64,000 nt of DNA from Waterburya sp. (GTDB taxonomy: Bacteria > Cyanobacteriota > Cyanobacteriia > Cyanobacteriales > Xenococcaceae), in the NCBI GenBank assembly GCA_965217895.1, contig CBDCJV010000002.1, positions 3,456,001 to 3,520,000 on the forward strand. Direction: 5' to 3'. This document shows positions 12,077 to 27,476 of this stretch, piece after piece; within the stretch, counting starts at the first letter, position 1; each line of letters begins with the position of its first letter. The translations under genes were made by a program, and so were the position numbers. The notes under the pieces were generated by a model. It was not told the origin of the DNA and searched no databases. It saw nothing but the letters and a program-made list of their open reading frames with translations.

Positions 12077-12150
12077 GGGACTGTAGTTCAGCTGGTTAGA
12101 ATGCCTGCCTGTCACGCAGGAGGTCGCGGGTTCGAGTCCCGTCAGTCCCG
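12077..12150 (+). tRNA. trnD: tRNA-Asp(GTC)
   Basis: GGGACTG/CAGTCCC acceptor stem, CCTGC-CTGTCAC-GCAGG anticodon arm, GGTTCGAGTCC T-arm, 74 nt. Confidence 0.97.
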
Positions 12151-12214
12151 TTCGTGCTAAATGCACTCACCTTATAGACTTCCCACCTTAACCTCCTGCG
12201 TAACAAGCAGGCAT

Positions 12215-12232
12215 TTACTCAAAACTTACTCA
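12215..12232 (+). repeat. Paired TTACTCA direct repeats, putative integrase arm-type sites (left end)
   Basis: TTACTCA at 12215 and 12226 (11-bp period); same pair at 27162/27173. Confidence 0.6.
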
Positions 12233-12312
12233 AAAATGAATATAGCAGTAGGACGAGGACGAGTGCAACGAGTACTTATGTACCCCAATTTATCGAGCGG
12301 TTAGATAAGCAC

Positions 12313-12352
12313 AAAAAAATGACGGGTTGCAAAATATCACAACTCCGTCATT
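12313..12352 (-). terminator. Putative intrinsic terminator for the leftward element operon
   Basis: AATGACGG-GTTG...CAAC-T-CCGTCATT hairpin followed by a T-run on the minus strand. Confidence 0.55.
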
Positions 12353-12475: not shown

Positions 12476-12739
12476 CTATTTTCGATCGTTTTCTAGCTTA
12501 TCTAGAATCTTATCCACCATCTTTTCTAGATAAATCAACCTTTCTTTTGACTCTTTAAAATCAAGATTATTTGATTTGTTTTCTAAGTGCTTTTTCTCCT
12601 GGTAGTCAAACCATTCTTCTATTATCAAATCTAGTGCCCTTGCATTACCTATTTTTTTGTCTATAGAAACGCCGTTTATTATTGCTCGAGCTTCTTCTGA
12701 CATCATAAATGTTCTAGGCTCAAAATTTTTCATACCCAT
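12476..12739 (-). CDS. Small ribbon-helix-helix-like DNA-binding protein with coiled coil
   Basis: RTFMMSEEARAII...ARALDLIIEEW; GGAGG RBS upstream; paralogous to 12887..13195. Confidence 0.55.
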   Translation of the reverse strand: MGMKNFEPRTFMMSEEARAIINGVSIDKKIGNARALDLIIEEWFDYQEKKHLENKSNNLDFKESKERLIYLEKMVDKILDKLENDRK

Positions 12740-12886
12740 AAAATTCCTCCAATACGTACAATTTATTTAACTTACTTAAAATCACTCAATCTGCTCTGAT
12801 TTTTTGCTATAAGCGTTGGTTTGACGGTATCTCAAAGCCAAAAAAGTTAGTTAGTTGAGTTAGAACCAAACAATGTACAATAGAGG

Positions 12887-13195
12887 CTATATAGCCTCTT
12901 CCTCCTTAGTCTCCCAGACATTAGTGTTGATTTCTGACCTTAGATCTGAGATCTCGTCATAAAGCTCAAAAGAGCGCCTCCAAAGAGATGATACTTTTTT
13001 GAGCAATTCCTCGTCATTGAAAGTGCGGTTTTGCTCGGCGTATTTTTGTCTCTGTTCAAACTCCCTCCACTCACGTACGATTACATCTAAAGCTCTACTA
13101 TCGTTGTCCTTTTCTTCAATGGACTTTATTTTTATTGCTTCTATTGTTTCGATATCCAGCGAAAACCCTTTGTGTAGCCTATTTCTTTTTCTCAT
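12887..13195 (-). CDS. Small ribbon-helix-helix-like DNA-binding protein
   Basis: KGFSLDIETIEAIK...SRALDVIVREW; AAGGAGG RBS upstream. Confidence 0.55.
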   Translation of the reverse strand: MRKRNRLHKGFSLDIETIEAIKIKSIEEKDNDSRALDVIVREWREFEQRQKYAEQNRTFNDEELLKKVSSLWRRSFELYDEISDLRSEINTNVWETKEEEAI

Positions 13196-13225
13196 GAGCC
13201 TCCTTTAGTGTTTGTATATTTCTAG

Positions 13226-13255
13226 AGCGTTGTACACTTCGTTGTACGTTTTTTA
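13226..13255. repeat. 30-bp element-internal repeat, copy 1 (AGCGTTGTACACTTCGTTGTACGTTTTTTA)
   Basis: Identical to 24808..24837; 24/30 match to 17190..17219. Confidence 0.9.
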
Positions 13256-13516
13256 CTTACGCCTACGCTTCTTACGCTTTTCCTTCTTAGTGAGTAATTT
13301 TTGAGTATCACCACCAGAATTTAAAAGACGTAGGTACGTTAACAGGTCTTCAAGCTGTTCATCGCTTAAAAGCAACCTAGAACGCTTCTCATAGCGTTTC
13401 TTGATGACAGATATGCAGGCTGTAGTAGACCAGCCTAAAATAGCTACTTCGTCATCTATCGCGTGCTTAAGTTCCCAAAAACTAACTCCGTCTAGTTTTT
13501 CTTTTTGTCTCTCCAC
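13253..13516 (-). CDS. Hypothetical phage protein with basic C-terminus
   Basis: 87-aa ORF in coupled leftward operon; LGWS...Y.KRSR..LSDEQL pattern. Confidence 0.6.
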   Translation of the reverse strand: MERQKEKLDGVSFWELKHAIDDEVAILGWSTTACISVIKKRYEKRSRLLLSDEQLEDLLTYLRLLNSGGDTQKLLTKKEKRKKRRRK

Positions 13517-13814
13517 TTTGTATAGAGTTGATTACGCTGTGTAAATGATGCAGTTGGCATTCCCAATCTACTACTAGTTTGTGATTTATTCTTTTGTCTC
13601 CTTTGAACAAAAAATAACTATCTATTTTTTTAGCCAGCCTTACAAAATCAGTAAACTCACACATAGCACAGTACATTATGTTTTGTACTTCTAGATTTCG
13701 CCTAATTCCAGCTTCGTCTCCATCTATATATGATTCAATGAAATAGTTGGTATTGTCTATCGCTTGATTCAATGCCAGGACGACAATTTCTAGTTCCTTG
13801 TCCGTAATTCCCAT
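13482..13814 (-). CDS. Hypothetical phage protein
   Basis: 110-aa ORF with AAGGAG RBS, in operon. Confidence 0.55.
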   Translation of the reverse strand: MGITDKELEIVVLALNQAIDNTNYFIESYIDGDEAGIRRNLEVQNIMYCAMCEFTDFVRLAKKIDSYFLFKGDKRINHKLVVDWECQLHHLHSVINSIQSGETKRKTRRS

Positions 13815-13821
13815 AATCTCC

Positions 13822-15015
13822 TTATCCTTTAGTCCATTTACCTTTTTGCAATCTCAATCCCAAATCAAGCAAACACTCTTTAGTGTCTCTTGGCTTAGGA
13901 GCTTCAAACAACCAACCTTGCTGTACCCACATATCTACTTGACCGCGTATTTGAGCTGTATAGAGTATCAGTTCCATGTTGGCGTTCAAGGCATTCTTGG
14001 TTTCAGTAGCTACAAAATCTCTAAGCAGACTACTTAACCCCGCGCTCTTTTCGGTTTCCCTTTTAAACCAAAACCAATAATCTCTCATCCTGTTAACTGC
14101 TTCCGTGTCGTCTGACCAGATACCAGTGGCAATCCCACAAGCCATCATGTCAAGGCTAATAGTTCTTTGTTGAGAACCTAGTCCTTTTACTGACTTGCTT
14201 AAAATACGCCTAGCAGTAACAAAAGTACTAGCTACGTCGATGTCCCAAAACTCATCATATAGCTTAGAGAACCCTTTCCAGCTATAAGCAGATATATCCA
14301 GTAACGCACTTTGCCAGTTATCATCGGTTATCCCTAACTCGATCTTACGATTGTCTGAAAGTTCCTCTACGCGACTACAAGGGATTACTATCAGTCGCCT
14401 CCTTAGTTCTTTAAAGCGATCGTCTAGATGCAGAGGTGAGATGCTAGAAAACACTTTAGGACAAAAGCACCTAAACTCTATATTGACTCCTGTTTCTTTA
14501 GACGAGACAACAATCTTATCTGTACTTTTGTCATACCCAAACTTAAACATATTGTACAGCTCTGGACTAGTGGTAAAGGTGTTAGCACTAACGTCATCCC
14601 AGACCATGCAGGTATTTCTTTCGACTGTCTTGTAAGGAGATTGATTTTCTCCTTCTGCTACTGGCACTTCCGCCCAGGCAGTCCTTCTTTCTTCTAAGCT
14701 GTTTCTTATGCCAGCAAAAGTATCACTACTAGAGTTAATAGGAACACCGTGTAGACAACTAGCCAGTTTAGCAAGCGTTGATTTGCCACTTCCCGATTGT
14801 CCGTTGAGGAACAAATAAGGAACAATCTTACACAAAGCAGAAGGGAGCATAAAGTAAGTAGCGATAATATCGTAAAAGTCATGAGGCAGAAATATTGTTT
14901 GCTTGAGGATGTTTAGCAAGTTTCCAGGAAGAGTCAAATTGTCACTATAAATTTCCCTCCAGGTGTCGCTTATGCCGTCCTCAGACACAAACAAGGTTGA
15001 GTAATCGTAAGCCAT
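13822..15015 (-). CDS. P-loop NTPase, probable replicative helicase-like protein
   Basis: Walker A GQSGSGKST, Walker B MVWDD, downstream ELRRRLIVI arginine-finger-like motif. Confidence 0.75.
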   Translation of the reverse strand: MAYDYSTLFVSEDGISDTWREIYSDNLTLPGNLLNILKQTIFLPHDFYDIIATYFMLPSALCKIVPYLFLNGQSGSGKSTLAKLASCLHGVPINSSSDTFAGIRNSLEERRTAWAEVPVAEGENQSPYKTVERNTCMVWDDVSANTFTTSPELYNMFKFGYDKSTDKIVVSSKETGVNIEFRCFCPKVFSSISPLHLDDRFKELRRRLIVIPCSRVEELSDNRKIELGITDDNWQSALLDISAYSWKGFSKLYDEFWDIDVASTFVTARRILSKSVKGLGSQQRTISLDMMACGIATGIWSDDTEAVNRMRDYWFWFKRETEKSAGLSSLLRDFVATETKNALNANMELILYTAQIRGQVDMWVQQGWLFEAPKPRDTKECLLDLGLRLQKGKWTKG

Positions 15016-15017
15016 AG

Positions 15018-15737
15018 TTATCTGATAATTGCCATTAACATCTCAAAGTAGATATCGGAAAAGCCTTCGCAGTCTTCGTTCTCTGTGTGAACTCGTCTTG
15101 TCAGAGTAGCCAAGGAATCTTCCTCGGTATAGCTAGTGTCTTTGATATCCGCAGTCATCTGCTTTTTAAGAAAAGCTAGTTTCTCTTCTATCGAAGCTCC
15201 TTTGCTATCCCCACCATTCTTCTTAAAACCACCGTTCGACGGTGGAGTATATTGCGGTAACTTACCGCTAAGATCGATGACCTCAGTTTTGGCGTTGGTT
15301 GCTACCAGTGCCTCCAGGCTAGCCCTGTCCATCGATGCACATATCCCGTTAGGAATAAAAGCAAGTTCTCCTTTGATACCACCAGAAGGAGGGATAAAAA
15401 AGGCTTCGTTTGTTTTGATATATTCGTACAAAGCCTTTTCAAAAACCGACGGTTGATACTTGATACCCTGCCAATTGCCGTTAGCATCTTTTTCTCTTAT
15501 TTCGTATTCTTGTCCGTAGATAGGTATGGCGCATAATCCAGGCACGAGTACTTCACTTGCTTTGAAGCTTCTGACGATGCCAGAATAACTAGTGACAAAA
15601 GCAGCGATAATGTAAGCATCATTCGTAGGGTATACTTTAGCTTCATCAAAGGTAACTTTGAAATATGTTTCTGCTTTGTCTCCTTTGAGTTTGCCATAGA
15701 GGTCGTCTTTGTAGGGGTCTAAATACTTTACTGTCAT
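15018..15737 (-). CDS. Hypothetical protein in replication module (possible ssDNA-binding/accessory)
   Basis: 239-aa ORF ending 2 bp before the NTPase start; function inferred from position only. Confidence 0.55.
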   Translation of the reverse strand: MTVKYLDPYKDDLYGKLKGDKAETYFKVTFDEAKVYPTNDAYIIAAFVTSYSGIVRSFKASEVLVPGLCAIPIYGQEYEIREKDANGNWQGIKYQPSVFEKALYEYIKTNEAFFIPPSGGIKGELAFIPNGICASMDRASLEALVATNAKTEVIDLSGKLPQYTPPSNGGFKKNGGDSKGASIEEKLAFLKKQMTADIKDTSYTEEDSLATLTRRVHTENEDCEGFSDIYFEMLMAIIR

Positions 15738-15770
15738 TACTGTTCTCGATATATGTTTGCGTTGAAATAA

Positions 15771-15992
15771 TTAGTAGATTGCCTCAGAGAGAATAGGGTA
15801 GAAAGAAGACAACTTCTTGAAATAATCTTCTTCCCCTATTTCGTGCAGCCTTTTATTTGTCACATACAACAGCTCGGCTACAAGCTGTTCTGGATTTTTG
15901 TTCTGTTCTAGTGCTAGTGTTTCAACCGCGTTTATAGCCAAGCCGATTAAAGTAACGAGTCGAACATCGTAAGGTGATTCTATTGGTGTCAT
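15771..15992 (-). CDS. Hypothetical phage protein
   Basis: 73 aa, start overlaps stop of upstream nuclease gene. Confidence 0.55.
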   Translation of the reverse strand: MTPIESPYDVRLVTLIGLAINAVETLALEQNKNPEQLVAELLYVTNKRLHEIGEEDYFKKLSSFYPILSEAIY

Positions 15993-16513
15993 CGTAATAT
16001 TTTTAATTTTCCTAACTCTTTTAAGGTCAGCAGATTTTTTTTGAAGTCGGACTCAAGCAGTGTTTTAACCATCTTGTTTTCAACTGGTAGCTTTTCAGGA
16101 AAGACAATTCTAAGCCTGCGGAAAATATTAAACCGAAGTTCTTCTAAGATTCCTAAGATAAGAGCAAATTCTGTTAAGAATGCACCTTTTGCCTCTACAA
16201 AAAGCAAAGGTTTGTTAGGTTGAGAATTATCAGAAATGGCAAAATCGACTTTCCATGTTTTCCCTCTTGGATAACAATAACTAGGCTTTAGTATTGATAC
16301 TGGTAACTGTCTAATTATCCTGTTTTCGCCGTACATTCTGCATAACTCTAGATATGTTTTAAACTCATGCTGGGAATCAAACCTCCAGATATGCTCAGGG
16401 AGTTTTAGCTTGCCTTTTACTCGATATATTTCTAAATTCCTAGAGTCAAGGACAGAACAGAGTTCTGTATTCCAAAAAACAGGCACGGCTTTATATTTTG
16501 GTCTCGCTGGCAT
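15989..16513 (-). CDS. PD-(D/E)xK nuclease, DUF1064-like
   Basis: FDSQHE...Y, WKVDF and FVEAKG motifs. Confidence 0.7.
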   Translation of the reverse strand: MPARPKYKAVPVFWNTELCSVLDSRNLEIYRVKGKLKLPEHIWRFDSQHEFKTYLELCRMYGENRIIRQLPVSILKPSYCYPRGKTWKVDFAISDNSQPNKPLLFVEAKGAFLTEFALILGILEELRFNIFRRLRIVFPEKLPVENKMVKTLLESDFKKNLLTLKELGKLKILR

Positions 16514-16824
16514 TAAGCAGATTCCTCGTAAGAGCGCCTCTTGTTGTCTAGAACCCCGTAGTAATTATCCCAAGCTTCGTCAACAAGATCTAGCACCCCT
16601 TCTTTGCCTAAAACAAAAAGTGTTTTGCAGATTCCTTTTCCTATGTAATTGATTACATATTGACGGTCGTAAATAACTTTAAACATGGTCGGTACTGGAT
16701 CGCCAATACGTCGAATACTTTTATTACACTCGTATCCAGCCTCGCTAACCATAGCGGGGTGCAAAGCTTTGATAAACTTATTACCCGTCATTTCTCGCCA
16801 GGTAATAGTCTCTATTTCAGGCAT
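16513..16824 (-). CDS. Hypothetical phage protein, first gene of leftward replication operon
   Basis: 103 aa; TAATG stop/start coupling with the nuclease gene. Confidence 0.6.
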   Translation of the reverse strand: MPEIETITWREMTGNKFIKALHPAMVSEAGYECNKSIRRIGDPVPTMFKVIYDRQYVINYIGKGICKTLFVLGKEGVLDLVDEAWDNYYGVLDNKRRSYEESA

Positions 16825-17189
16825 AGTTTTCTTATTGAATTGTTAGCTAAAGCTTTAAAGGCAATCTCTCAGAGCTTTGAATCAAAGGTAAGTAGATTTG
16901 ACTTTTTAAACTTAATCTACTATCGTTTTTTTTTTGACTCGCATCAGGAAAAATACGGAAATTTTAGCTAAAAATTGGCTTATTTTTTAAATAATTAAAA
17001 ATATTGTTTTTATTGTAAATAATAATTACATAACTATTGACGTTAGTGTTTTTAAAAGCAATTATATTAATAACCCTATTCCGCTTCGCTCCAAGGGAAA
17101 TATACTAGGGGTGGGTGGGCGTAGCCACAGGGAAATAATCACTTATATAAAAACTTTACTTGTTCTCTCTTCTAAGAACATCTTCTAAA

Positions 17190-17219
17190 AGCGTTCAACA
17201 CATCGTTCAACGTTTTTCA
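17190..17219. repeat. Variant copy of 30-bp element repeat
   Basis: AGCGTTCAACACATCGTTCAACGTTTTTCA; GT to CA change in both half-sites. Confidence 0.8.
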
Positions 17220-17228
17220 GATATACAT

Positions 17229-17651
17229 CTACTCACTAGTTACCTGCTTAATAATTTTCTTAGTAGCTGATATTTCTGTTTTTATCTCTTCTGTATTTTC
17301 TACCTCTGGCAATTCCTGAATCTCTTCTATCGCTCCCTGTAATCTTCCGTACCCTTCCTGTCCTTTTAAAGACTCCTCGTAAACCTTTCTTAGCTTCTCG
17401 TAAGCCTCGTCTTTTTGCCTAATAATCTCGGCCTGACTATCTAGCTTAGCTGCTACTTCTGTAAGTTTGTTCGCACTGCTGCCAATGATTAGTTGAGTAT
17501 TCGCTACCTTTAAGCCGACTTCAGGCGCACGAGCAACTCGTATCCCCAAACAGACAATAAACACAAAAACACCCCCAGAAAGCAAATTCAAGCTTAATGG
17601 AGGCAGTCGAGTAAAACCTTTAGTAATCATTGTTTTATAAATAAATTGCAT
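17229..17651 (-). CDS. Single-TM coiled-coil protein, possible lysis accessory (spanin/holin-like)
   Basis: N-terminal hydrophobic helix, coiled-coil C-terminus, overlaps lysozyme 3' end. Confidence 0.5.
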   Translation of the reverse strand: MQFIYKTMITKGFTRLPPLSLNLLSGGVFVFIVCLGIRVARAPEVGLKVANTQLIIGSSANKLTEVAAKLDSQAEIIRQKDEAYEKLRKVYEESLKGQEGYGRLQGAIEEIQELPEVENTEEIKTEISATKKIIKQVTSE

Positions 17652-18253
17652 TCGTCTTTTCTGCGGTTAACCAAACCAGGCAAAAGTTTTCCTCCTGCTC
17701 TAGTCCAACGACTAAACTCATTAAACGCTCTTTGATAGTCTTTTTGATTAAGTAGTTTAAGCAAAGTAGATTCACTAAACGCATCAATACCTACGTTAAA
17801 GGTAAAGCTAACTAAGGCATCAAACTGATTCTGATTTAAAGGCACGTCTACAAGCCTGAGTACAGCTTGTTCGTAAATTCTCAAGTCCTCTATAAGAAGG
17901 TTTTCAGCTTCAAGGTGACTAATCATCTGTCCTTGCTTTACTCCCTTAGTGTGTCCATAACCAATAGTCCAGACACCAGCGGGACAAAGATAAGCATTGG
18001 TTCTTAAGCCTTCCCACTTCTTGATCAGGCTTACGCCAATCTGCGAAGTCTTATTAGGTTTAATCGTTTTTTCATCAGGCTGTGTCATCCAGCCAACATA
18101 AGGCAAAGCTCCTTTAGGTCTAGGGGGGAGGTTTAAAACTTTTCTTGCTTCGGTATCGATTAGGTAATCAACACTCAGGCATTCGTCATCAGATGTTCTA
18201 CTTGTTATCGCTGCCATCGCCCGTTCCCGCATCTCCTTGATCGACAGGTTCAT
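17627..18253 (-). CDS. Phage lysozyme/endolysin (GH24)
   Basis: GVSLIKKWEGLRTNAYLCPAGVWTIGYGHT, LNQNQFDALVSFTFNVG, LPGLVNRRKDE. Confidence 0.95.
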   Translation of the reverse strand: MNLSIKEMRERAMAAITSRTSDDECLSVDYLIDTEARKVLNLPPRPKGALPYVGWMTQPDEKTIKPNKTSQIGVSLIKKWEGLRTNAYLCPAGVWTIGYGHTKGVKQGQMISHLEAENLLIEDLRIYEQAVLRLVDVPLNQNQFDALVSFTFNVGIDAFSESTLLKLLNQKDYQRAFNEFSRWTRAGGKLLPGLVNRRKDECNLFIKQ

Positions 18254-18731
18254 TTATTATTACTCCTGATACTGTTATTGTTTTTTCTAGATAGATAGGT
18301 ACACAGTAAAGTGTTAACGAATTCAAGTTAGCTAATGGAGAAATTAGTACCGTATCCCCTGGAGTTAAAGTAATAAAGTTTTGGTCGATAAATTCTTTAG
18401 TAGGCAGTAGAGAGCGACAAAATACTCTCTTTTCTAGCCTCACAATTGAAAAATAACAACTTGCATAACCTGCGTTATTGGCGTCTATATCAGAAACACT
18501 AATAAAGTCATCATCAGATTCAACGTCGCTACCTGCTGCTACTACCAAGTACTCCTTGCCCAAAATATCTTTTAAGTCAAACTGGTGTTGTTTGTTTGCT
18601 TTCAAGTCATAAAACACTATCGGCGTATAGCTTTCCAACTCCTTAGCTCTGTAAACCAACCCATCTTCTTTAAATACAGCAATCGAGTCAGTGCCATTGA
18701 GAATAATATCTTTTTTAATCGAACTTTCCAT
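18198..18731 (-). CDS. Hypothetical, candidate virion protein
   Basis: 177 aa beta-rich; coupled to 18731..19465. Confidence 0.55.
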   Translation of the reverse strand: MESSIKKDIILNGTDSIAVFKEDGLVYRAKELESYTPIVFYDLKANKQHQFDLKDILGKEYLVVAAGSDVESDDDFISVSDIDANNAGYASCYFSIVRLEKRVFCRSLLPTKEFIDQNFITLTPGDTVLISPLANLNSLTLYCVPIYLEKTITVSGVIINEPVDQGDAGTGDGSDNK

Positions 18732-19465
18732 TATAAAAACCCTAAATCTATTTGTAGTCTGCTGCCAATCACTTGTCTTAAAGCCTGTCCTTGGTCTGGT
18801 GGCAATAGCGCAGCTAATCCCTCAGCCAAGGTATATAATCCTGCGTCTGTTTGACTAATCCGAGTATTAAGCTGCGTTTCTCTAAAGTCATCAAGCTGTA
18901 TCTGGGAAGTTTCCCTCTCGCTTAGTTCCCTAAATTTATCCGTTATCAATTCCTCAATTACCGTTAGTTGTGCCTCAATCAAACCACTGGGTTGATTTGG
19001 ATCGATGCCTAGCACATTACCAATGCCGAACAAAGCATCCTCGACGAAGTTAAGCGTGTCACCTGTATATTCGTAAACCCTGATAGCCACATCTTTAAAC
19101 CAAAACGGCGGTGTATACCTAAGCCTAAACCTATCGGTACTAATGCGGTTTGTTTCGACTATCTGTAGCTTGTTAATAAACAAGCGGGTCGGAAGACTTT
19201 GAAGAACACTCGTTACGGGGCTATTACCACCAGGTACAAAATTGTAAACTTGCCTGATATCTCCTGCAAACTGCCAGCTAGGTTTGCCCGAGCCTGTTGT
19301 AGCTACGACAGCAATATAGTCAGAAAAAAGGCTAACGCCAAGGTCGATAGGAGGTATAGGGGTATGAGAATTTTCATTGATAATAGTAGCTGTTCTACTA
19401 GCATCGGCTACAATCCTCCAATCTTCAGAGTTATCAAAAAATATTAAGTCTTGTCCTGCTGGCAT
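18731..19465 (-). CDS. Hypothetical, candidate virion protein (beta-rich N-terminus, helical C-terminus)
   Basis: 244 aa in contiguous leftward block upstream of lysozyme. Confidence 0.6.
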   Translation of the reverse strand: MPAGQDLIFFDNSEDWRIVADASRTATIINENSHTPIPPIDLGVSLFSDYIAVVATTGSGKPSWQFAGDIRQVYNFVPGGNSPVTSVLQSLPTRLFINKLQIVETNRISTDRFRLRYTPPFWFKDVAIRVYEYTGDTLNFVEDALFGIGNVLGIDPNQPSGLIEAQLTVIEELITDKFRELSERETSQIQLDDFRETQLNTRISQTDAGLYTLAEGLAALLPPDQGQALRQVIGSRLQIDLGFL

Positions 19466-19471
19466 AACTGG

Positions 19472-19708
19472 CTATACCAATTTCATTTCTTCTAGATTGC
19501 CTTCAATAGTTTCTAGATAGCCGTCGATGTTCACTTGAGCGGTTTCAAGTAAATCGATGTACTCCTGAAAGCTAATTTTCTGAGCCAAAAAATCGTCCTT
19601 GGCTACTTCGACTATGGCATAGGTGTCCATTAATCTGTCTAGATCACTGTCGTTCATATCCCTAGTACTACCACCAGGGATAATTAGCTCTATTGCCCTA
19701 TCAAGCAT
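19472..19708 (-). CDS. Small acidic hypothetical protein
   Basis: 78 aa, 2-6 bp spacing to neighbours. Confidence 0.6.
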   Translation of the reverse strand: MLDRAIELIIPGGSTRDMNDSDLDRLMDTYAIVEVAKDDFLAQKISFQEYIDLLETAQVNIDGYLETIEGNLEEMKLV

Positions 19709-19710
19709 TT

Positions 19711-20274
19711 TTAATACTTCTCAGAATGAAAACTAGCTGAAGCAGTCGTAAGTGCTTCGACAGCAATAAGTATATCCCCTCTAACTTTGTTTTCTGCTTT
19801 TTCTGTTGCCGATGCACCATACGGGAAGGTAAAAGAATTGCCGATTCTCTTGCTGTATTTAATGCCCGTAATTTGACTAGTTGGTGATGCCGAACCTGTT
19901 CCGTAATCAAATACAGTTACCTGCGCAGGTTTAAAGCCCTGTATCTTGGTTTGACTTTCTGGGTCGTAAGTAACATGATTACAAGCACTTTGTACAGAGT
20001 CCAGAGTCGCTTTCTCATCTGCTCGTTTTGAAAGTGCTACGATTGCACCATTCGCAGGGTTTCCACCGAAGAAAAAAGGTAAAATGCCTGTTTTTAAAAT
20101 TTCACCAGGATTGCTATTATCGTCTCTGGAATAAACTAACTTAGTTTTCCCAGAAGCAAAGTCTTGAAAGTTTCTGGCAATTGTATTAGCAGGGGCATCG
20201 GGAGTGGGGGCGTTTGAGTTGGGAGTACGCAAAGTGGTCAAGGCATATTTTAATCTACTAAATCTTCTAGCCAT
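19711..20274 (-). CDS. Hypothetical, candidate capsid-type protein with basic N-terminus
   Basis: MARRFSRLKY N-terminus, 187 aa; structural role is inference. Confidence 0.55.
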   Translation of the reverse strand: MARRFSRLKYALTTLRTPNSNAPTPDAPANTIARNFQDFASGKTKLVYSRDDNSNPGEILKTGILPFFFGGNPANGAIVALSKRADEKATLDSVQSACNHVTYDPESQTKIQGFKPAQVTVFDYGTGSASPTSQITGIKYSKRIGNSFTFPYGASATEKAENKVRGDILIAVEALTTASASFHSEKY

Positions 20275-20391
20275 ATCTAATTATTGCTATTTTTATATAT
20301 TTACACTTTGTTTCTAACCTATCTGTCTTTGAATGAAAATGATTTGACTGGCAACTGATTAGAGAATCGACCTTTAAGGGCGCACACTTTT

Positions 20392-21210
20392 TTAAGCAAC
20401 CTCGATCGTTCTTGCTTTTGTCCCCGTTCTGTCTACTAAAATAAGCGGTTGAGTCAATCCTGGAATAAATAATTCTGCATAAGCAAATTTAACTGTGGCT
20501 ACGGGTCTTCGTTTTGGCTTCCTGACTACATCGCCCATGACTCGTACTGTTCCAGGTACATTGTAATTTTTTTTGTCTTCGTGGTATCTGAGAAAATTAT
20601 CCCAGTCTGGTTCGCTGTCATCTTGTATCCTAATTGCCTGCTCGATTATTTTCTTGGCGTCCGTTTCGTCATCTGTAGTGACGCTAAAAAAGTAACCTTT
20701 CTGTTTGTCTGCATAACTCCACAACTGTCTGCCTTTTCTGTAGAAAAAAACAGGTCTAGCAAAATCATTTAGTATTTTTAAAGCCAGTCGATTAATATTT
20801 GTTGTCGTATAATCTTCTTCTCTCCACCTAAAACTTACCTCGCTCCTAGCTGGTCTTCTTTCATTATCGGAAGCCTCATATTTGTCCTCTCTAAAGTGAA
20901 GCTTTACCTGTGGATAGTAGGTATTAGAAATCTCAAAGTCAGTGCTAGGAATACCGTAAACGTATTCATCTAATAAGTTTCCCGCTTCTACCCACCAGGT
21001 TAACATCCTGGCTAACGTAAGAGTCATTGTATCGGTGTCCTTATGTAGACAAATACGTTTAATTAGCTGTCTTGGCGCAGCCGTGCTAAGGCTAGCGTCA
21101 TCACTACCGTCAACGTCTCTAAAGTGCTTGTTTATAGCCTTGTTAAAGTAAGTTCTACAGTAACTTTGAAACATTTCAACATCTGGTTTACTCACAAGTT
21201 CGTTCCTCAC
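20392..21210 (-). CDS. Hypothetical phage protein (start may be the GTG of VSKPD, which has a GAGG RBS)
   Basis: 272-aa ORF; YGIP, PQVKLHFRED and RKPKRRP motifs. Confidence 0.7.
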   Translation of the reverse strand: MRNELVSKPDVEMFQSYCRTYFNKAINKHFRDVDGSDDASLSTAAPRQLIKRICLHKDTDTMTLTLARMLTWWVEAGNLLDEYVYGIPSTDFEISNTYYPQVKLHFREDKYEASDNERRPARSEVSFRWREEDYTTTNINRLALKILNDFARPVFFYRKGRQLWSYADKQKGYFFSVTTDDETDAKKIIEQAIRIQDDSEPDWDNFLRYHEDKKNYNVPGTVRVMGDVVRKPKRRPVATVKFAYAELFIPGLTQPLILVDRTGTKARTIEVA

Positions 21211-21447
21211 CTGTTCTAATTGGTATATTCATACTAACTTTTAATTTCAGGTGTTAATATTTTGTTTAGTTTCTGTTGTTCCAATAGATGCGCACTCTAA
21301 AAACGTGATAAGAAACAGGCACGCTCTAAAAACGCGTAGGGATAACTACTGATTCTTGTTTTTAAACTTTTTATCTGTCTTTTGTTTTTTTATCTGTCTA
21401 TCTAATTGTTTCTTAAGATACTGTAGTTCGATAACAAAAGCTTTCTA

Positions 21448-21897
21448 GTGCTACCAAGAGGATGGTTACAAACCAGACTCTTTCATCATTTAAATACCAG
21501 TCAAAATAGCAACAATTTAAAAGCACCCTTGGGAGAATTAGCTAGTAACACCCGATTAGATATCCCAAACACTACACCTACTACAACCAACAAATCATCT
21601 GTACCTACTGCTAGTAATGAGTTACAAAATAATAACTTTATAGACAAATCTCTTTGCGTATTTCATAACCATTTAGACTGGTTAAGTTTTACTTTTGAGA
21701 AGCTAAGTAAAGAGGAATTTAACCAATTAATTCAACTTACTGGTAGAGGATTAACCACGTTAGAAAAAAACAAATCCTGGTCTAGTGGTGAAAGAGCTAG
21801 AAGCTATCAAAACACTATTCACTCTGCTATCAGCTTAAAAGGTGCTTATAACTGCTATCAGGTAGAAAACAAAATAAGAAAAGTCGGTTTCCGATAA
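21448..21897 (+). pseudogene. Truncated N-terminal fragment of a Rep_trans-like replication initiator, copy 1
   Basis: SNTRLDI and HLDWLSFTF motifs, ends after 149 aa. Confidence 0.5.
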
Positions 21898-21954
21898 ATA
21901 GGCAAAAAAAAAGAAGCCCTGTTAAACAAGACCAACTTTCTTTACACAAAGACA

Positions 21955-22263
21955 ATGATAAATCCAAACAATCAAAATAGCAACCAGTAGTTTTCACCTG
22001 CCCAAAATAGCCCTAGTAATACCCCGCTAGATATCCGTTATACTCCACCCTTTTCTACTCATAGCTTTAAGTCACTTTTACTTTCTTCCTTAGACTCCCA
22101 GAATAAAAATAATATATTAAAAAATACTATTGATTATTTAAGAATTAGTAGTAGTAAATTAAGTAAAAGGTCTTTTGGAAACTTACTAGCTAACCTAGTC
22201 TTACCTGTACCTTGCTTTGAAAACAAAATACCTTTTGTCTATGATACATTAGTACTTGTTTGA
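21955..22263 (+). pseudogene. Second decayed paralogous Rep-like N-terminal fragment
   Basis: Manual translation MINPNNQNSNQ*FSPAQNSPSNTPLDI...TIDYLRISSSKLSK, in-frame TAG at 21988. Confidence 0.5.
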
Positions 22264-22300
22264 ATACTAACCTTAGTTACACCCAAAAGATATCTAAATA

Positions 22301-22609
22301 ATGACTCAAATTAACATTGCTACCGATATTCCAAGTCAAATCAATACTTTAGAACGCCTAGCTATGTGGTCGTGTATGGCATTGAGAAGAGTAAATCCAA
22401 CTTTAGCAGTCATTGAAATCGCCGACCAGACAGCCGAGAAGGTAGCGCAAACCGCTTTGGTACAGGCTGATGATGGAAAAATTAGGTTTATTGGCAGATT
22501 GAGCCTGGAAGTAGCAGCCGATTATGCAGAAGACAATACGGCAAAGCTTTGGACGAAAGCACTGGAGTTTAGCAATACTCAGCTACCCGCAGCCTACAAA
22601 GCAAACTAA
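22301..22609 (+). CDS. Hypothetical, candidate virion protein
   Basis: 102 aa, TAATG-coupled to 718-aa gene. Confidence 0.7.
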   Translation: MTQINIATDIPSQINTLERLAMWSCMALRRVNPTLAVIEIADQTAEKVAQTALVQADDGKIRFIGRLSLEVAADYAEDNTAKLWTKALEFSNTQLPAAYKAN

Positions 22610-24765
22610 TGGGCATTTATTCAAAATTTGTCAAAACACCTGGGGGGCAAACTAGATTTGTCGTCACGACTGAACCCCCTAGTATTTACGAAAGCTTTAG
22701 AAGTCCTATCCCCAAACCACCAAAACCACCTGTGTTGCTCAAGGGGGTAGGTAAGCTTCTAGGAATCCCTGCTTTAGTTCTTCTTGATTTTTTCTTTAAT
22801 AACAAGCCCTTGAGCGACGGAACGATCCCTCAATGGATTACGCAGATTGACGAGCAGCAAAAAATAGGCACAAAAAGCTATCCCCAGTCGCGTGACACCT
22901 ATTATCGCTTTGTTTATCGAGAAGCTAATCTTAATAACGGCGTGGTGACATGGGGTAATGACTACGTAAGGGTCAACTCAGATCGGTTTAACGGCATCCA
23001 GTCTTGGCGATTAAAGGCATTCTACAAAGGGATTGCCTCTTATCCAGCCGATAATAAATTTTTTACCTACGTTTACTATCCCAGCACAGGTAAATACGAT
23101 TCAAGACCAGCAGGTGAACGTAATGCTGATTATTATGTTGAGGTCGTTGATTTTTTAGGTGTAATAACAACTATCTACCTGGGTGGTACTAGCGGTCTAT
23201 GGGGACAAAGGTTTATTACAGTTGACAATATCCCTCAGCCCGAAATACAAGAAGATATTAAAACCAAAGCTAATAATCAGTTTGCAGCAGGATTAGCCTT
23301 AATCGATCTGCTTGGAGCTAAAGAATGGCAATTTGCAGGATTTAGTAAGCTGCCTAGCTTTGGTAATAACCAGTATCCTCAGATTGATTTTATTCCTCTA
23401 CCGACAATAAGTAATAAGCCAGGCATATTACCTACTCCTACACCTGTTCCTATACCCGACCCCGAGCCAAAGCCAGAAATAAAGCCAGAAATTAATGGTG
23501 GCACTAAAGAGATAATCGAACAAAAACAAGGACAAAAGAATGAATACCCCGATCTCGTTCCTGGCAAAAAATACATCAAGAGAATTACGACCAAGGATTC
23601 AGATGGAAAAATTATTAAGATTACTGTAAATCCTTCTGAAATATTAAACCCAACGCCTACACCAGTTCCCGACCCCAAACCAGTAAAAATTACCAAGACT
23701 CCCGACCCCGAGCCTAAAAACAATATTATTATTTTTACTCCTAATCCTGTTCCACCCCCTTCGATTAAGCAAGAAAAAATTACAGATAACGACCCTAAAC
23801 CATTCCCTCCGCCAATTATCCCCCCTGTCAAGCCACCCAATCAAACCGCGACAGATGACTGTGCTGGTTCGTGTGCAAATAGAGCTTTAGCACCAGGTTC
23901 ACCAGGGTTGCTAAATATTACAGGCTTATTAAATGGTTTGCTACTACAAGATCCTCTACTTAGAAGAATAGATACAACTACTACGACAACAAGAGACATA
24001 GTTTCTCATGCCGATTATGGTCTGTCTAAAATACAAAAATTCGCTAGTACCGCTTGGAAGGCTACCCACGGAGACAAGATCCTCAATGCGCTTACAACAG
24101 CGGTAGTTATTCATAACGGGGTAATGCTGTCTAGAGGATTGGGGAACAGTCTTGCTGACGTTGCTACCGTCACGCTTCAAGCCATGGGGCTTAAAGACTC
24201 GGAAGGTAAACCGTTTGACGTCCAACAGATAGTCAGTGAAAAACTAACTCAGATGATGCAAAGAATATTAGGTGCTGGAAACTACGAAGCACTCACTGCT
24301 AAACTGGCATCTTATAGTCGTGTCTACCAATCAGCTGCTAACTTAGCTGATTTAACCTTCAGTCTGTTTGATTCAGCTAGAAACATCGCAGAGGCTTCGG
24401 CTACTAATACAGGTAAGATAGGTAACGCTCTCAGGGAAGCTGGAGCGGTTTACGAAGATGCCTATGAAGAGATGTCCGAAAAATACAGTCCTCAGAACAG
24501 AGCAATGCGTAAGCTGTCGGGTCTGACTGAGAATGTAGAGGAGTTCACAGAAAAGGCAGACAGAATAGGCGAGGTAAGTAGTGAGGTAGTTGAAATCAGA
24601 GAGAGCTTTGCAGAGCTACAGTCAGAAAGAGAGGTGCTAAAGAATGAGGTTAACACCGCCTTAGATCTCAAGAAAGAAGAGAAAGACTTGGCTAAGGAAG
24701 ATGTTCAGACTAAAACAGATGTTAACGACATTGACTTTGACCCCGCTCTAGCTGAAGACAACTAA
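22609..24765 (+). CDS. Large Pro-rich/coiled-coil protein, candidate adsorption/DNA-delivery protein
   Basis: Aromatic beta-rich N-domain, PTPTPVPIPDPEPKP linkers, CxxxC, long helical C-terminus. Confidence 0.65.
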   Translation: MGIYSKFVKTPGGQTRFVVTTEPPSIYESFRSPIPKPPKPPVLLKGVGKLLGIPALVLLDFFFNNKPLSDGTIPQWITQIDEQQKIGTKSYPQSRDTYYRFVYREANLNNGVVTWGNDYVRVNSDRFNGIQSWRLKAFYKGIASYPADNKFFTYVYYPSTGKYDSRPAGERNADYYVEVVDFLGVITTIYLGGTSGLWGQRFITVDNIPQPEIQEDIKTKANNQFAAGLALIDLLGAKEWQFAGFSKLPSFGNNQYPQIDFIPLPTISNKPGILPTPTPVPIPDPEPKPEIKPEINGGTKEIIEQKQGQKNEYPDLVPGKKYIKRITTKDSDGKIIKITVNPSEILNPTPTPVPDPKPVKITKTPDPEPKNNIIIFTPNPVPPPSIKQEKITDNDPKPFPPPIIPPVKPPNQTATDDCAGSCANRALAPGSPGLLNITGLLNGLLLQDPLLRRIDTTTTTTRDIVSHADYGLSKIQKFASTAWKATHGDKILNALTTAVVIHNGVMLSRGLGNSLADVATVTLQAMGLKDSEGKPFDVQQIVSEKLTQMMQRILGAGNYEALTAKLASYSRVYQSAANLADLTFSLFDSARNIAEASATNTGKIGNALREAGAVYEDAYEEMSEKYSPQNRAMRKLSGLTENVEEFTEKADRIGEVSSEVVEIRESFAELQSEREVLKNEVNTALDLKKEEKDLAKEDVQTKTDVNDIDFDPALAEDN

Positions 24766-24807
24766 AATAACCTAAAAACACCAACGAGTTTATAGGCATT
24801 TCCAGAA

Positions 24808-24837
24808 AGCGTTGTACACTTCGTTGTACGTTTTTTA
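24808..24837. repeat. 30-bp element-internal repeat, copy identical to 13226..13255
   Basis: Direct sequence comparison, 30/30. Confidence 0.9.
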
Positions 24838-24848
24838 GATATGCCTAC

Positions 24849-25334
24849 CTACCTCTTCACCCAAACACCATCTTTTACCGCATAAGCTTCTAACTTCCGT
24901 TTGATTATTTTCCCCCTGGGTTTTTGAATACCGTGTCGCCACAGCTTGACCTTCCATTCACTTTGTCCCGTTATGGCTGCGATACGTTCATCATTCAAAT
25001 ACTTCGCATTTTCGTCTTGCTGTAAAGCCTTAATCTTGTCTAGTTCAGACTCTAAATACGCTACTTGCTCTTCTAACTCCTTTGTCCTCTCCAGTACCTG
25101 TACTGCTAGCTTATTAGCAGCCATAATGCCGTCTTCTGCTACAAGCCTCCACGCATCGAAGTCTCGATCCTCCATCAGACTCTTTGGTGTCTCGTCAATA
25201 ATCCCAGCACCTTTCTTAACCAGAGCCTCTAAAGCTTCAGATCTAGTCATCCTATGTTTGTCCGCATACTCGCTTATCAGTTCCTCTTCTGTAATATCGA
25301 AGTATCCCGCGATCGCCGTCTTATTCTCTTCCAT
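24849..25334 (-). CDS. Putative regulator: RHH-like N-terminus, coiled coil, HTH-like C-terminus
   Basis: YADKHRMTRSEALEALV; DERIAAITGQSEWKVKLWRHG. Confidence 0.55.
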   Translation of the reverse strand: MEENKTAIAGYFDITEEELISEYADKHRMTRSEALEALVKKGAGIIDETPKSLMEDRDFDAWRLVAEDGIMAANKLAVQVLERTKELEEQVAYLESELDKIKALQQDENAKYLNDERIAAITGQSEWKVKLWRHGIQKPRGKIIKRKLEAYAVKDGVWVKR

Positions 25335-27169: not shown

Positions 27170-27206
27170 TTCTTACTCACTTTGCTTGCAATGGTTAACG
27201 AGTAAG
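27162..27206 (+). repeat. TTACTCA pair plus inverted GAGTAAG, putative arm-type sites overlapping integrase start codon
   Basis: TTACTCA at 27162 and 27173; CTTACTC on minus strand at 27200..27206. Confidence 0.6.
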
Positions 27207-27246: not shown

Positions 27247-27275
27247 GGGAGTTCAAGTCTCCCTACCCCCACTCG
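27247..27275 (+). other. tRNA-like 3' fragment (T-arm plus acceptor 3' strand), putative right attachment site
   Basis: GGGAG-TTCAAGT-CTCCC-TACCCCC-A; not tRNA-Asp sequence. Confidence 0.65.
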
Positions 27276-27476
27276 ACATAAAGTCTTTTGTTGAAAAGGA
27301 TTTAAGACTGTCAGGTTAGATGACATTATTTTGTTAAGACGACAAATAATTAGTGAATGTACATTTGTATCCCCTTAATTTGCTTTTTAAACGAGTTATC
27401 GTAGAATAACAAAAATGAATGGCTTGCTAGTTGCCGCTAACAAGCCAAAGACAATTAAGACCAACCTAAGTTTGTT

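Follow-up and report, generated by a model that had tools for sequence, protein, structure and literature searches.

An inverted copy of target tRNA sequence at the left ends of a family of tyrosine-integrase elements in Waterburya and its relatives

Described systems and the Waterburya element

Integrases that use tRNA genes are thought to locate their site through protein-DNA contacts together with a short identical overlap, and the T loop is nearly identical in most tRNAs; a T-loop class of tRNA-integrating elements was reportedly delineated by Williams in 2002. The bridge RNA of the IS110 family comes from non-coding DNA that adjoins the recombinase gene where the ends of the circular form meet, and it can pair with target sequence to either side of the crossover, each side on a different strand. 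CTX phage attP(+) and integron attC are folded single-strand sites in which the recombinase-binding arms pair with each other around an unpaired centre, and the primer-binding sites of retroelements are complementary to a host tRNA.

The tycheposons of marine cyanobacteria combine tyrosine recombinases, many tRNA targets, partial tRNAs and tandem accumulation, and, according to the available part of the preprint, their integrases cluster by target tRNA and their partial tRNAs are direct att repeats (bioRxiv 10.1101/2020.12.28.424599). As far as that part of the text presents them, they resemble the present family (cyanobacterial, with tyrosine recombinases that target many tRNA genes, with partial tRNAs and with tandem accumulation) and differ from it in that eight integrases of the present family do not cluster by tRNA and in that a mirror copy of the target is present here. 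The text of the preprint contains neither "reverse complement" nor "palindrom", and "inverted" appears once, in the reference list.

The window analysed here is a stretch of 64,000 nt from Waterburya sp. (GenBank assembly GCA_965217895.1, contig CBDCJV010000002.1, positions 3,456,001 to 3,520,000 of the forward strand). It holds an integrated element of ~15 kb, with a tyrosine integrase and TTACTCA heptamer pairs at both ends, beside a single gene for tRNA-Asp(GTC) that ARAGORN and Rfam place at 12076/12077-12150/12151. The features, in window coordinates, are these:

12077..12150, plus strand: tRNA-Asp(GTC), the sole full copy in the genome and the chromosomal target
12100..12124, plus strand: mirrored stretch of the tRNA, namely the anticodon arm and 4 nt on either side (tRNA positions about 25-49)
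12126..12150, plus strand: block made up of T arm, acceptor 3' strand and discriminator, of which the family has a direct copy by the integrase end
12131-12137, plus strand: T loop, the likeliest crossover place within 12126..12150, on the basis of 20/20 right ends and of attL/attR of relatives G022 and G017
12151..12190, plus strand: element-borne trailer, with a short GC hairpin (12154-12166) and a degenerate ACTTTCAC copy (12177-12186)
12191..12215, plus strand: mirror segment, the reverse complement of 12100-12124 (23/25)
12215..12232, plus strand: left-end heptamer pair TTACTCA-N4-TTACTCA (N4 = aaac; 12215-12221 and 12226-12232), putative arm-type integrase sites
12311..12352, minus strand: hairpin and then seven U, terminator-like, where the leftward operon of the element appears to end, some 80 nt in from the left end
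12476..25334: element body, mostly minus-strand small ORFs without an assigned family
13822-15015, in the element body: P-loop ATPase
17229-17651, in the element body: membrane/coiled-coil protein
17627-18253, in the element body: GH24 lysozyme
22609-24765, plus strand, in the element body: Pro-rich 718-aa protein, with no usable match in the protein atlas
25760..27169, minus strand: integrase of 469 aa, a divergent tyrosine recombinase (PHROG phrog_1, E 6.7e-8; sequence motifs)
27162..27179, plus strand: heptamer pair of the right end, TTACTCA-tttc-TTACTCA, which overlaps the start codon of the integrase
27247..27271, plus strand: direct tRNA block, made of T arm and acceptor of tRNA-Leu(TAA), not of tRNA-Asp
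27280..27358, plus strand: terminal fragment of another repeat family (ending ...GTGAATGTACA)

With classical tRNA-integrating elements that have lambda-type tyrosine integrases, this family shares the recombinase motifs, a direct tRNA 3' block that restores the gene, and arm repeats flanking the core; unlike them, it carries in its attP an inverted copy of the target from across the crossover as well. No description of an attP with an added inverted copy of far-side target sequence was found in the literature searched, and we know of none. The likeness to retroelement primer-binding sites is that of a mobile element retaining complementarity to a host tRNA, whereas the stretch here matches the occupied gene and varies with it; a reverse transcriptase was not found among the 20 element ORFs scanned. 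The integrase translation contains LRIHE, HALRH and GH...VY, which we take to be the catalytic R...HxxR...H/W...Y set of tyrosine recombinases. It has 471 homologues, with the precomputed label PF27132, and no match in Pfam-A, NCBIfam or PDB sequences; among viral contigs, no relatives of it were confirmed. The left-end heptamer pattern occurs in 21 of the 39 genomes of the genus (reversed control, 0), and its six matches in viral contigs all proved on inspection to lack a tRNA or family features.

The copy in the window has tRNA-Asp at its left junction and a tRNA-Leu(TAA) block at its right end, so that no matching direct repeat stands at its two ends; it is therefore a hybrid of two family members and as such uninformative on recent integration. 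Sequence common to the TerC-side flank of relatives begins at about 27359-27374. Homology to the second element copy of the genome begins at 12213. The identity between the two copies stops exactly at the start of contig C2, and a reading of that contig as circular was dropped for this reason. Contigs from two sequencing runs (one sample, mixed relatives), compared with 11000-28500, contained no joint across the element ends. A candidate outward promoter in the left end (TTGACA-17-TATTTT) was rejected because it sits within the terminator-like hairpin and seven U; the leftward operon seems to terminate before the mirror segment. New insertions of the family pile onto remnants of older ones.

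The mirror segment and its match to the target tRNA

A repeat search of the window returned two arms, 12100-12124 and 12191-12215, that are 25 nt long, 92% complementary and separated by 66 nt. When the window was searched with the 25-mer on both strands at up to 3 mismatches, these two sites were the only matches, and none of 100 dinucleotide-preserving shuffles yielded a match. These searches bear out the initial annotation, which had reported a 23/25 antisense copy of tRNA-Asp 12100-12124 with two mismatches in the anticodon loop, lying 40 bp past the tRNA and abutting the TTACTCA pair. The mismatches fall at 12202 and 12206, both inside the copy of the anticodon loop; position 12191 is 40 nt beyond the end of tRNA-Asp; and T12215 is both the final base of the segment and the opening T of the heptamer pair, so that segment and pair abut. 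Weak tRNA similarity extends leftwards from the segment into a degenerate mirror of the T loop at 12177-12190, and the inverted replica is thus longer than the 25 nt, which are its well-kept part. There is good support for a replica that covers target tRNA positions about 22 to 60 and is best preserved in 12191-12215. Across the whole genome, a strong inverted copy within 130 nt downstream was found for only two of 41 tRNA genes, tRNA-Asp (score 20.0) and tRNA-Leu(TAA) (20.5), both of which adjoin copies of the element; tRNA-Leu(TAG) scored 12.0, all others at most 9, and the upstream control reached a maximum of 9.5.

Twenty same-genus genomes have a tRNA-Asp locus in which no contig end cuts the match to the tRNA. 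The match stops at the tRNA 3' end in 16 of them, and the remaining four have trailer, mirror and left end; on inspection of four element-free and four element-bearing loci, the element-free trailers were unrelated. The comparison with empty-site strains proposed in the initial annotation accordingly finds the segment absent after tRNA-Asp in element-free relatives, and, judged by these sequences, the mirror segment is part of the element, not of the host. A host trailer, an ordinary terminator or chance, for which nothing speaks beyond the position after the tRNA, can practically be dismissed as its source: chance did not produce a match in any of the 100 shuffles, the segment is missing behind tRNA-Asp where the element is missing, and behind the local 5-pair hairpin of 12191-12215 comes TTTACTC, not a U tract. 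A small hairpin downstream of the tRNA is no general feature, since z falls below -1.5 in just 10 of 40 junctions. Breaks after GACTTT in relatives were considered as crossover points and set aside, since short inverted-repeat elements are inserted there.

Co-variation was examined in 40 unique junctions between a tRNA and a left end, which represent 15 tRNA species. In 29 of the 40, covering 10 tRNA species, the cognate tRNA beats every non-cognate tRNA in reverse-complement score, which is the outcome that the initial annotation had sought across homologous elements, and in 28 the cognate score lies above all 100 shuffles. What is copied is in every case the ~28 nt that directly precede the T loop on its 5' side, which means the anticodon arm in short tRNAs and, in tRNA-Leu, the variable arm; the Waterburya genome's second element copy, at tRNA-Leu(TAA), has a 19/19 reverse complement of the variable arm. 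One junction is chimeric, with a Val-type trailer and a Thr(GGT)-type mirror (23/24), and a search of one genome for the displaced Val-type mirror matched the tRNA gene alone. A cognate mirror copy is lacking in 11 or 12 of the 40 junctions, including the Geminocystis-type Thr and Pro junctions, and it follows that the mirror is dispensable for sitting at a tRNA. The Gly-GCC, Ser-TGA and Ser-GCT junctions of one genome also belong to this group and have a common spacer that is unrelated to any of these tRNAs and has no other source within that genome.

Eight full-length integrases are 56-72% identical in pairwise comparison, without clustering by tRNA, and the two that adjoin a Leu(TAA) block are only 60% identical; on these comparisons, target choice by protein alone seems a weak explanation. 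The match between mirrors and their own tRNAs suggests that the element fits its target by sequence, and not by protein recognition alone.

Attachment site and crossover

In all 20 right ends, one of which has a single heptamer, the direct tRNA block starts in the T stem, after the right-end heptamers, which places the crossover in the block from T arm to 3' end and not in the anticodon loop. The direct-repeat feature is found in relatives: a single contig of G017 contains both a left junction and a block of Leu(TAG), ~14 kb from each other, and in G022 left junction and block are both of Asp, each on its own contig. By bringing the tRNA 3' block as a direct copy, the element leaves the tRNA whole after insertion. 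The heptamers are repeated about 80-98 nt either side of the core, as putative arm sites. It is well supported that the family has a tyrosine integrase and heptamers TTRCTCA at both ends and recombines inside the tRNA 3' block, between T loop and 3' end.

A metagenomic contig of 14,211 nt contains an attP-like junction, in which the integrase end is followed by a 23-nt tRNA-Pro(CGG) 3' block, a 64-nt spacer and a left end. No full tRNA is present, and the spacer is the reverse complement of tRNA-Pro(CGG) at 23/25, which makes the mirror copy part of attP. The search pattern (right-end heptamer, 135-175 nt, left end) gave this single metagenomic match, with none in 401 genomes of the order and none in viral contigs. 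Spacer length is 61-64 nt in 38 of 40 junctions, and in 25 of 28 the mirrored T54 lies 31-33 nt away from the heptamers of the left end. The family motif ACTTTCAC, a mirrored T loop with two fixed changes, occurs at no more than 1 mismatch in 14 of 40 spacers as against 4.6% of shuffles, and, of the 25 spacers with it at no more than 2 mismatches, 20 have its first base 37-38 nt from the left end. Beyond the core, attP consists in order of a trailer of ~25-35 nt, the mirrored T loop and a mirror of ~28 nt, an arrangement that is well supported; the mirror reproduces, as reverse complement, the part of the tRNA that borders the crossover on its 5' side, and ends exactly at the left-end heptamers. 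With a direct 3' block and a mirrored 5' block, attP contains both sides of the target. The sequence comparisons give good support for regarding the replica as the element's own, within attP.

The initial annotation had offered an inverted core-type site (CCTGC-7nt-GCAGG) at the anticodon arm as one option. Although the inverted repeats formed by the two arms resemble a recombinase core site in their hairpin shape, recombination of CCTGC-7-GCAGG hairpins, as an integration core or as an invertible switch, is very unlikely and that option found no support. The direct repeat between the element ends begins in the T stem, the mirrored hairpin of tRNA-Leu is the variable arm and not CCTGC-7-GCAGG, the loop (the would-be overlap) is conserved least, with 2 of 7 positions differing in the window, and no junction with a flipped 66-nt segment was seen among the junctions inspected.

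The direct 3' and mirrored 5' blocks share the geometry of the IS110 bridge RNA, a likeness of layout only: the recombinase here is of the tyrosine type with arm sites, and the direct block is ordinarily explained by tRNA restoration. The only Rfam match in the window is the tRNA. To CTX attP(+) and attC the locus is similar in having inverted core-like stretches tens of nt apart with a fixed central mismatch, here a real and a mirrored T loop that differ at two positions. It differs from them in that the mirrored T stems are poorly kept (about 6/17 in the window, by eye; alignment reached them in only 7-12 of 28 junctions) and in that the best-kept part is without any partner inside attP. A CTX-type folded core finds no support in the window, where the mirrored T stems are degenerate.

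Possible roles of the mirror segment

The mirror differs from the tRNA at 82 of 691 aligned positions (88% identity), evenly over about 28 nt. Among 22 same-tRNA pairs of junctions with diverged trailers, trailer identity is 0.45 (background 0.44) and mirror identity 0.61 (background 0.34), the mirror exceeding the trailer in 18; these values come from gapped alignment, since register shifts of 1-3 nt make ungapped comparison uninformative. The part of the mirror that copies the anticodon loop is the least conserved (0.74-0.75), which is not as simple guide pairing predicts and was the ground for rejecting a kissing of extruded hairpin loops.

It is conceivable, though improbable, that the mirror is a by-product without a function of its own, left by an inverted duplication of the tRNA when the targeting region formed (fold-back synthesis or a faulty recombination event at the T arm might produce one) and since refreshed by gene conversion from the adjacent tRNA. 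The replica does resemble one contiguous inverted copy running leftwards from the T arm, its decay favours A/T (of the 82 mismatches, 33 are G>A and 13 C>T), some junctions have lost the mirror or have a foreign one at a still constant spacer length, and copies in the same genome are visibly homogenised through recombination. However, the architecture and register are repeated across 10 tRNA species, the mirrored T loop retains a constant pair of changes that gene conversion by the tRNA would remove, the mirror stays similar although adjoining trailers have diverged to background, and it is kept in the attP junction, where no tRNA partner lies alongside.

An effect at the RNA level, also raised in the initial annotation, is similarly doubtful. 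Because no terminator lies between tRNA and segment, read-through transcripts would include antisense of the tRNA body; this could pair with the anticodon or variable arm and alter tRNA processing, stability or read-through, or the released trailer RNA could mark the integrated state. Such transcripts would pass no terminator-like site within 11900-12700, and in the predicted fold of the 165-nt tRNA and trailer, which has -56.9 kcal/mol (z -4.7; 0/200 shuffles as stable), 12100-12124 and 12191-12215 form a long hairpin that is possible only when the element is integrated because its 5' partner is host sequence. The pairing would, however, harm an essential single-copy tRNA with no evident gain for the element, and the hairpin, whose loop measures 66 nt, runs across the acceptor stem and lacks a U tract behind it. 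The fixed heptamer register and the conserved altered T-loop motif would be left unexplained, and the segment is present in attP too, away from any promoter-bearing tRNA.

The reading tentatively preferred, a little short of probable, is that the mirror half is one part of the recombination site that serves to match the target. Since the element has to supply the correct tRNA 3' end, such a part would bind it to its cognate tRNA and keep it off other tRNAs with a near-identical T loop. This might happen in either of two ways. Once strands are opened or exchanged, the mirror strand could pair with the host strand by the T loop, and such pairing would serve as a homology check or a lock past the 7-nt overlap. 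Alternatively, the mirror could be a same-molecule copy of the tRNA-side half-site, holding an integrase subunit anchored on the neighbouring heptamers and setting an affinity that the real target must match. Of the guide put forward in the initial annotation, the element-borne, target-matched segment has stood, while guiding by base pairing is a hypothesis.

A bolder proposal, for which the chances appear slim, is that target choice by the integrase is set by nucleic-acid complementarity and that the ~115 nt between the heptamer pairs are an exchangeable addressing cassette. Its contents would be the direct 3' block, the trailer and the mirrored 5' block. In the form of single-stranded DNA, or of an RNA transcribed across attP, the two blocks would pair with opposite strands of the tRNA gene flanking the T-loop crossover. 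To our knowledge, no tyrosine integrase reads its target by base pairing. If the proposal were true, a cassette swap would re-aim the same integrase to another tRNA and, in principle, also to some other site with a T-loop-like core.

An element that joined the wrong 5' and 3' parts of a tRNA would destroy an essential gene, and a conserved, target-matched mirror of the neighbouring 28 nt in ten tRNA species points to an extra, undescribed matching device. Were base pairing to prove correct, the family would represent a naturally re-addressable integrase system from the most widely used family of site-specific recombinases; a protein-binding copy or an action at the RNA level would still add a new element to the architecture of att sites. 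Such a mirror device would also explain how one element family spreads across many tRNA genes.

An inverted tRNA copy at the left end of the element

The tRNA-Asp(GTC) gene is followed by a reverse-complementary copy of part of itself, here called the mirror segment (and the mirror copy at other loci). The repeat finder places two arms of 25 nt each at 12100-12124 and 12191-12215, 92% complementary and with 66 nt between them; a pattern search for the 25-mer (up to 3 mismatches) returns only two sites in the 64 kb, and none of 100 shuffled sequences contains a match. The segment begins 40 nt past the tRNA, both of its mismatches fall within the copy of the anticodon loop, and its final base is base 1 of the heptamer pair at the left, tRNA-side end of the element. 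Repeat finder, pattern search and shuffles thus confirm, as stated in the initial annotation, an inverted copy of the tRNA-Asp arm that abuts the heptamers. Across the same genome, a high inverted-copy score is seen for only 2 of 41 tRNAs, both of them element-bearing.

Features of the element and its borders in the window
12077-12150: tRNA-Asp(GTC), the only tRNA gene in the window
12191-12215: mirror segment
12215-12232: left-end heptamer pair, TTACTCA-aaac-TTACTCA
13822-15015: P-loop ATPase (Walker A GSGKST; 226 homologues; no Pfam label)
17229-18253: membrane/coiled-coil protein, then GH24 lysozyme
plus strand: Pro-rich protein of 718 aa
25760-27169: integrase of 469 aa (PHROG integrase family, E 6.7e-8)
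27162-27179: second heptamer pair, TTACTCA-tttc-TTACTCA, overlapping the integrase start
27280-27358: terminal fragment of another repeat family, ending ...GTGAATGTACA
from 27.7 kb: host genes resume (TerC, RuvA, endonuclease III)

The host is a cyanobacterium (COP23, NdhN, GUN4 and numerous GCGATCGC repeats in the window). Host genes for a TPR protein, COP23 and a TPS-domain protein lie to the left of tRNA-Asp, and the region to its right (12.2-27.3 kb) holds largely small minus-strand ORFs without an assigned family. The ATPase is a core gene of the element, and many of its homologues come from contigs 12-15 kb long, as would be seen if the element often assembled alone. Tyrosine recombinase box motifs can be seen by eye in the translated integrase, which has no match in local Pfam-A, NCBIfam or PDB sequence libraries; its 471 homologues (E up to 1e-5) are nearly all 469 aa long and carry the precomputed label PF27132.

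Several other features were observed in the window. A minus-strand hairpin at 12311-12352 (-18.2 kcal/mol, z -4.4), followed by seven U, resembles a terminator for the leftward operon of the element, and relatives have hairpins with T runs at the equivalent position, some on both strands. A candidate outward promoter in the left end was rejected, as it lies inside this terminator-like hairpin with its seven U. An intergenic repeat in three copies (13226-13266, 17190-17230 and 24808-24848), with a tandem GTTGTAC motif and a T run, sits each time directly past a minus-strand element ORF and may act as a signal for regulation or termination in the element. A large serine recombinase gene (49155-50468; Resolvase, Recombinase and zinc-ribbon domains) adjoins NdhN, and a DDE transposase fragment (39364-39819) lies between 24-nt inverted repeats (38479-38502 and 39845-39868).

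Target matching across junctions and genomes

Left ends were gathered with the pattern TTRCTCAAWNCYTRCTCAAAA. A scan of one genome per species yielded 96 stretches, 80 of which were fetched, and a tRNA lies within 260 nt upstream in 18 of the 80, all in records with cyanobacterial titles. Within the genus, the pattern occurs in 21 of 39 genomes and a reversed control pattern has 0 matches. With further fetched regions included, a same-strand tRNA precedes 55 of the 124 matches with at least 150 nt upstream; removing one junction with a 27-nt spacer as well as exact duplicates left 39, which together with the window make 40 unique junctions (tRNA, spacer and left-end heptamers) spanning 15 tRNA species. 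In 38 of them, 61-64 nt separate the tRNA end from the heptamers. In local alignments of each spacer with its own tRNA in reverse complement, the cognate score exceeded that of every other-species tRNA in 29/40 junctions and all 100 shuffles in 28/40, and forward-strand scores stayed at background level. A clear mirror copy is present for ten tRNA species (Arg-CCG, Arg-TCT, Asp, Gly-TCC, Leu-GAG, Leu-TAA, Leu-TAG, Pro-CGG, Thr-GGT and Val-TAC), so that the predicted co-variation, in which elements at other tRNAs match their own tRNA in reverse complement, holds for the 29 junctions. No cognate mirror copy was found in 11 or 12 of the 40; the junctions without one are three of Geminocystis type (Thr, Thr, Pro-GGG), two Ser-GGA, two Leu-GAG, one Asp and four in a single genome, G013.

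The tRNA-Asp locus was compared by searching 41 genomes, which gave 20 same-genus matches uncut by a contig end. The match stops at the tRNA 3' end in 16 of these (query positions 751-766) and extends through trailer, mirror segment and heptamers in four (G022, G008, G001 and G013). Among eight loci read, the tRNA-Asp sequence is identical in all; the sequence past it is unrelated in G017, G019, G020 and G023, and a homologous trailer, mirror segment and heptamer pair follow it in the other four genomes. The segment is hence absent past tRNA-Asp in element-free relatives, the outcome expected if it does not belong to the host trailer. Homology with the second element copy in the window's own genome (contig C2, minus strand, left end 15294, after tRNA-Leu(TAA)) begins at 12213, at the heptamers, and the 19 nt preceding the heptamers in that copy are a perfect reverse complement of the tRNA-Leu(TAA) variable arm. 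The mirror segment is real, element-borne and target-matched. With respect to the proposal that it is a guide selecting the tRNA by base pairing, co-variation and empty sites sustain the element-borne and target-matched parts; the guide itself is plausible but unproven.

Crossover site and anatomy of the mirror copy

For right ends, the 330 nt preceding each of 20 integrase genes from the genus were read. In all 20, the heptamers overlap the integrase start codon (a single heptamer at one locus) and are followed by ~50 conserved nt, including an inverted heptamer, and then by ~32 variable nt; a block identical to the tRNA 3' part, from within the 5' strand of the T stem to the 3' end, is likewise present in 20/20. 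In the genome G017, left junction and block both belong to tRNA-Leu(TAG) and lie ~14 kb apart on a single contig; in G022, both belong to tRNA-Asp. Given this layout and these paired ends, the elements are of the classical tRNA-restoring type, and their crossover lies within the block from T arm to 3' end. The likely overlap is the T loop, judging by the left boundary of the block and by the class of T-loop integrases. The core hence does not lie in the anticodon arm, and the suggested core-type site at that position is not supported, as the direct block starts in the T stem at every right end.

Past its block, G017 retains the trailer, decayed mirror copy and left-end remnant of an older insertion, and the same remnant stands past intact tRNA-Leu(TAG) in G019 and G020. 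Both of these genomes look element-free at this tRNA, yet a trailer of 64 nt is left there (L029/L031), its mirror copy decayed and its heptamer pair degenerate, and a small ORF comes next; these are old remnants, pushed downstream by new insertions as in G017.

One metagenomic contig of 14,211 nt was found with a joint right-end/left-end pattern. Its integrase start with heptamers is separated by ~70 nt from a block of 23 nt, and a spacer of 64 nt then leads to the left-end heptamers and the left-end interior. ARAGORN detects no tRNA gene in it. The block matches the 3' end of a tRNA-Pro(CGG) from the junction set without a mismatch, and the last part of the spacer is the reverse complement of the same tRNA (23/25). 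Among the homologues of the integrase and of the ATPase, one each has 14,211 nt as the length of its longest listed contig, and since many homologue contigs measure 12-15 kb, the metagenomic contig is probably a whole circular or tandem element. In either case, the element carries the mirror copy along but not the mirrored part of the tRNA, and the mirror copy is part of attP. The layout of attP around the T loop is roughly symmetric, with a heptamer pair ~80-98 nt off on either side, and the mirror copy sits between the core-proximal trailer and the left-end heptamers.

The copy covers tRNA positions from ~22-31 to ~47-65, directly 5' of the T loop; in short tRNAs this is the anticodon arm, in tRNA-Leu the variable arm plus part of the anticodon arm. 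The register is fixed, with mirrored T54 31-33 nt from the heptamers in 25/28 junctions. Identity is 88% overall (82 mismatches in 691 positions) and 0.75-1.0 per position over ~28 positions, with a minimum of 0.74-0.75 at the anticodon loop; kissing loops were rejected as a candidate, this part being the least conserved. In alignments that reach the T loop (7-12 junctions), flanking positions match and those mirroring T55 and C56 do not (4/9 and 2/9). The family motif at this place is ACTTTCAC, where real tRNAs would give AYTYGAAC; it occurs with up to one mismatch in 14/40 spacers versus 4.6% of shuffles, begins 37-38 nt from the heptamers in 20 of 25 spacers with up to two mismatches, and has a weak copy in the window (12177-12186). 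A short GC-rich hairpin or palindrome opens many trailers and is not general (z below -1.5 in 10/40). Among 22 same-tRNA junction pairs with diverged trailers, which are not independent, trailer identity is down to 0.45 (between-tRNA background 0.44), the last 30 nt have 0.61 identity (background 0.34), and the last 30 nt are more alike than the trailer in 18.

Decay of the mirror copies is strand-asymmetric: on the tRNA-sense strand of 28 junctions there are 33 G>A changes among 173 G and 13 C>T among 206 C, a threefold difference per base from which no inference is drawn because related copies share changes. In mirrored anticodon loops, nearly every C reads T on the other strand.

Recombined copies and possible roles of the mirror copy

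The G013 junctions of Gly-GCC, Ser-TGA and Ser-GCT share one common spacer, which begins with a heptamer and lacks the ACTTTCAC motif; it is unlike any of the tRNAs, and no further copy of it occurs in G013. The tRNA-Val junction there combines a Val-type trailer with a mirror copy of tRNA-Thr(GGT) (23/24). Left-end interiors are at least 97.5% identical in five G013 junctions over the comparable 60-168 nt, and a near-identical left end stands at at least five different tRNAs (loci L048, L074, L083, L089, L094 and L103). The two copies in the window genome are 99.4% identical over 13797-27489 and only 86% over the first 400 nt. These identities show that recombination overwrites copies within a genome and can thereby separate a backbone from its junction.

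The window copy (12077-27271) is a hybrid, with an Asp left junction and a block (27247-27271) from tRNA-Leu(TAA), and for this reason the tRNA 3' part is not repeated directly at its two ends. Clean excision would yield a chimeric tRNA, so the copy is probably fixed in place. Contig C2 begins exactly where identity with the window copy ends (second copy at G000:C2:1-15296), and the assembly was therefore probably broken at the element repeat. Past the block come 8 nt and then the 79-nt terminal fragment of another repeat family; inverted copies of this GTGAATGTACA-ending repeat begin 42-45 nt past tRNA-Leu(TAA) in relatives (L037 of G020; L139/L143). One copy splits an old mirror-plus-left-end remnant and has ACGA on both sides, much as a transposon with a 4-nt target duplication would.

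Keeping 28 nt equal to host sequence for ten tRNA species calls for sequence comparison (pairing or templated copying) or for one protein surface that binds both. Eight integrases, 56-72% identical, do not group by tRNA (a small sample, in which the window's integrase may be mismatched by recombination), which weakens the case for a specificity encoded in the protein alone. A role inside the recombination complex is suggested by the constant spacing from the heptamers and by the conserved, altered T loop. We therefore tentatively favor the mirror copy as the target-matching part of attP, with a confidence that stops a little short of even. It could serve as a homology check or lock, in which the mirror strand would pair with the host strand beside the T loop, or as a same-molecule copy of the tRNA-side half-site that would hold an integrase subunit anchored on the neighboring heptamers. 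Maintenance by gene conversion, which would make the mirror copy a by-product, is considered unlikely. An effect at the RNA level, on the same transcript as the tRNA, is similarly improbable: the predicted fold of tRNA plus trailer does pair both arms (-56.9 kcal/mol, z -4.7) and no terminator separates the tRNA arm from the segment, but no benefit is apparent and the geometry is left unexplained. A terminator function of the segment was rejected, there being no terminator-like site between tRNA-Asp and the heptamers.

The resemblance of the att region to bridge RNAs, CTX attP(+), integron attC and retroelement primer-binding sites is one of layout and not of membership; a folded CTX-like core is not supported in the window copy, whose mirrored T stems are degenerate. 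Passages of the tycheposon preprint (bioRxiv 10.1101/2020.12.28.424599) describe direct partial tRNAs and integrases that cluster by tRNA, and the integrase-driven inversions between archaeal tRNA genes that are the subject of PMC5495485 are a possible parallel for hybrids such as the window copy. Among the titles and abstract openings listed by full-text literature searches, none describes a mirror copy. The element belongs to the broad kind of tRNA-integrating elements with a tyrosine integrase, and compared with the known members the mirror copy is a new feature.
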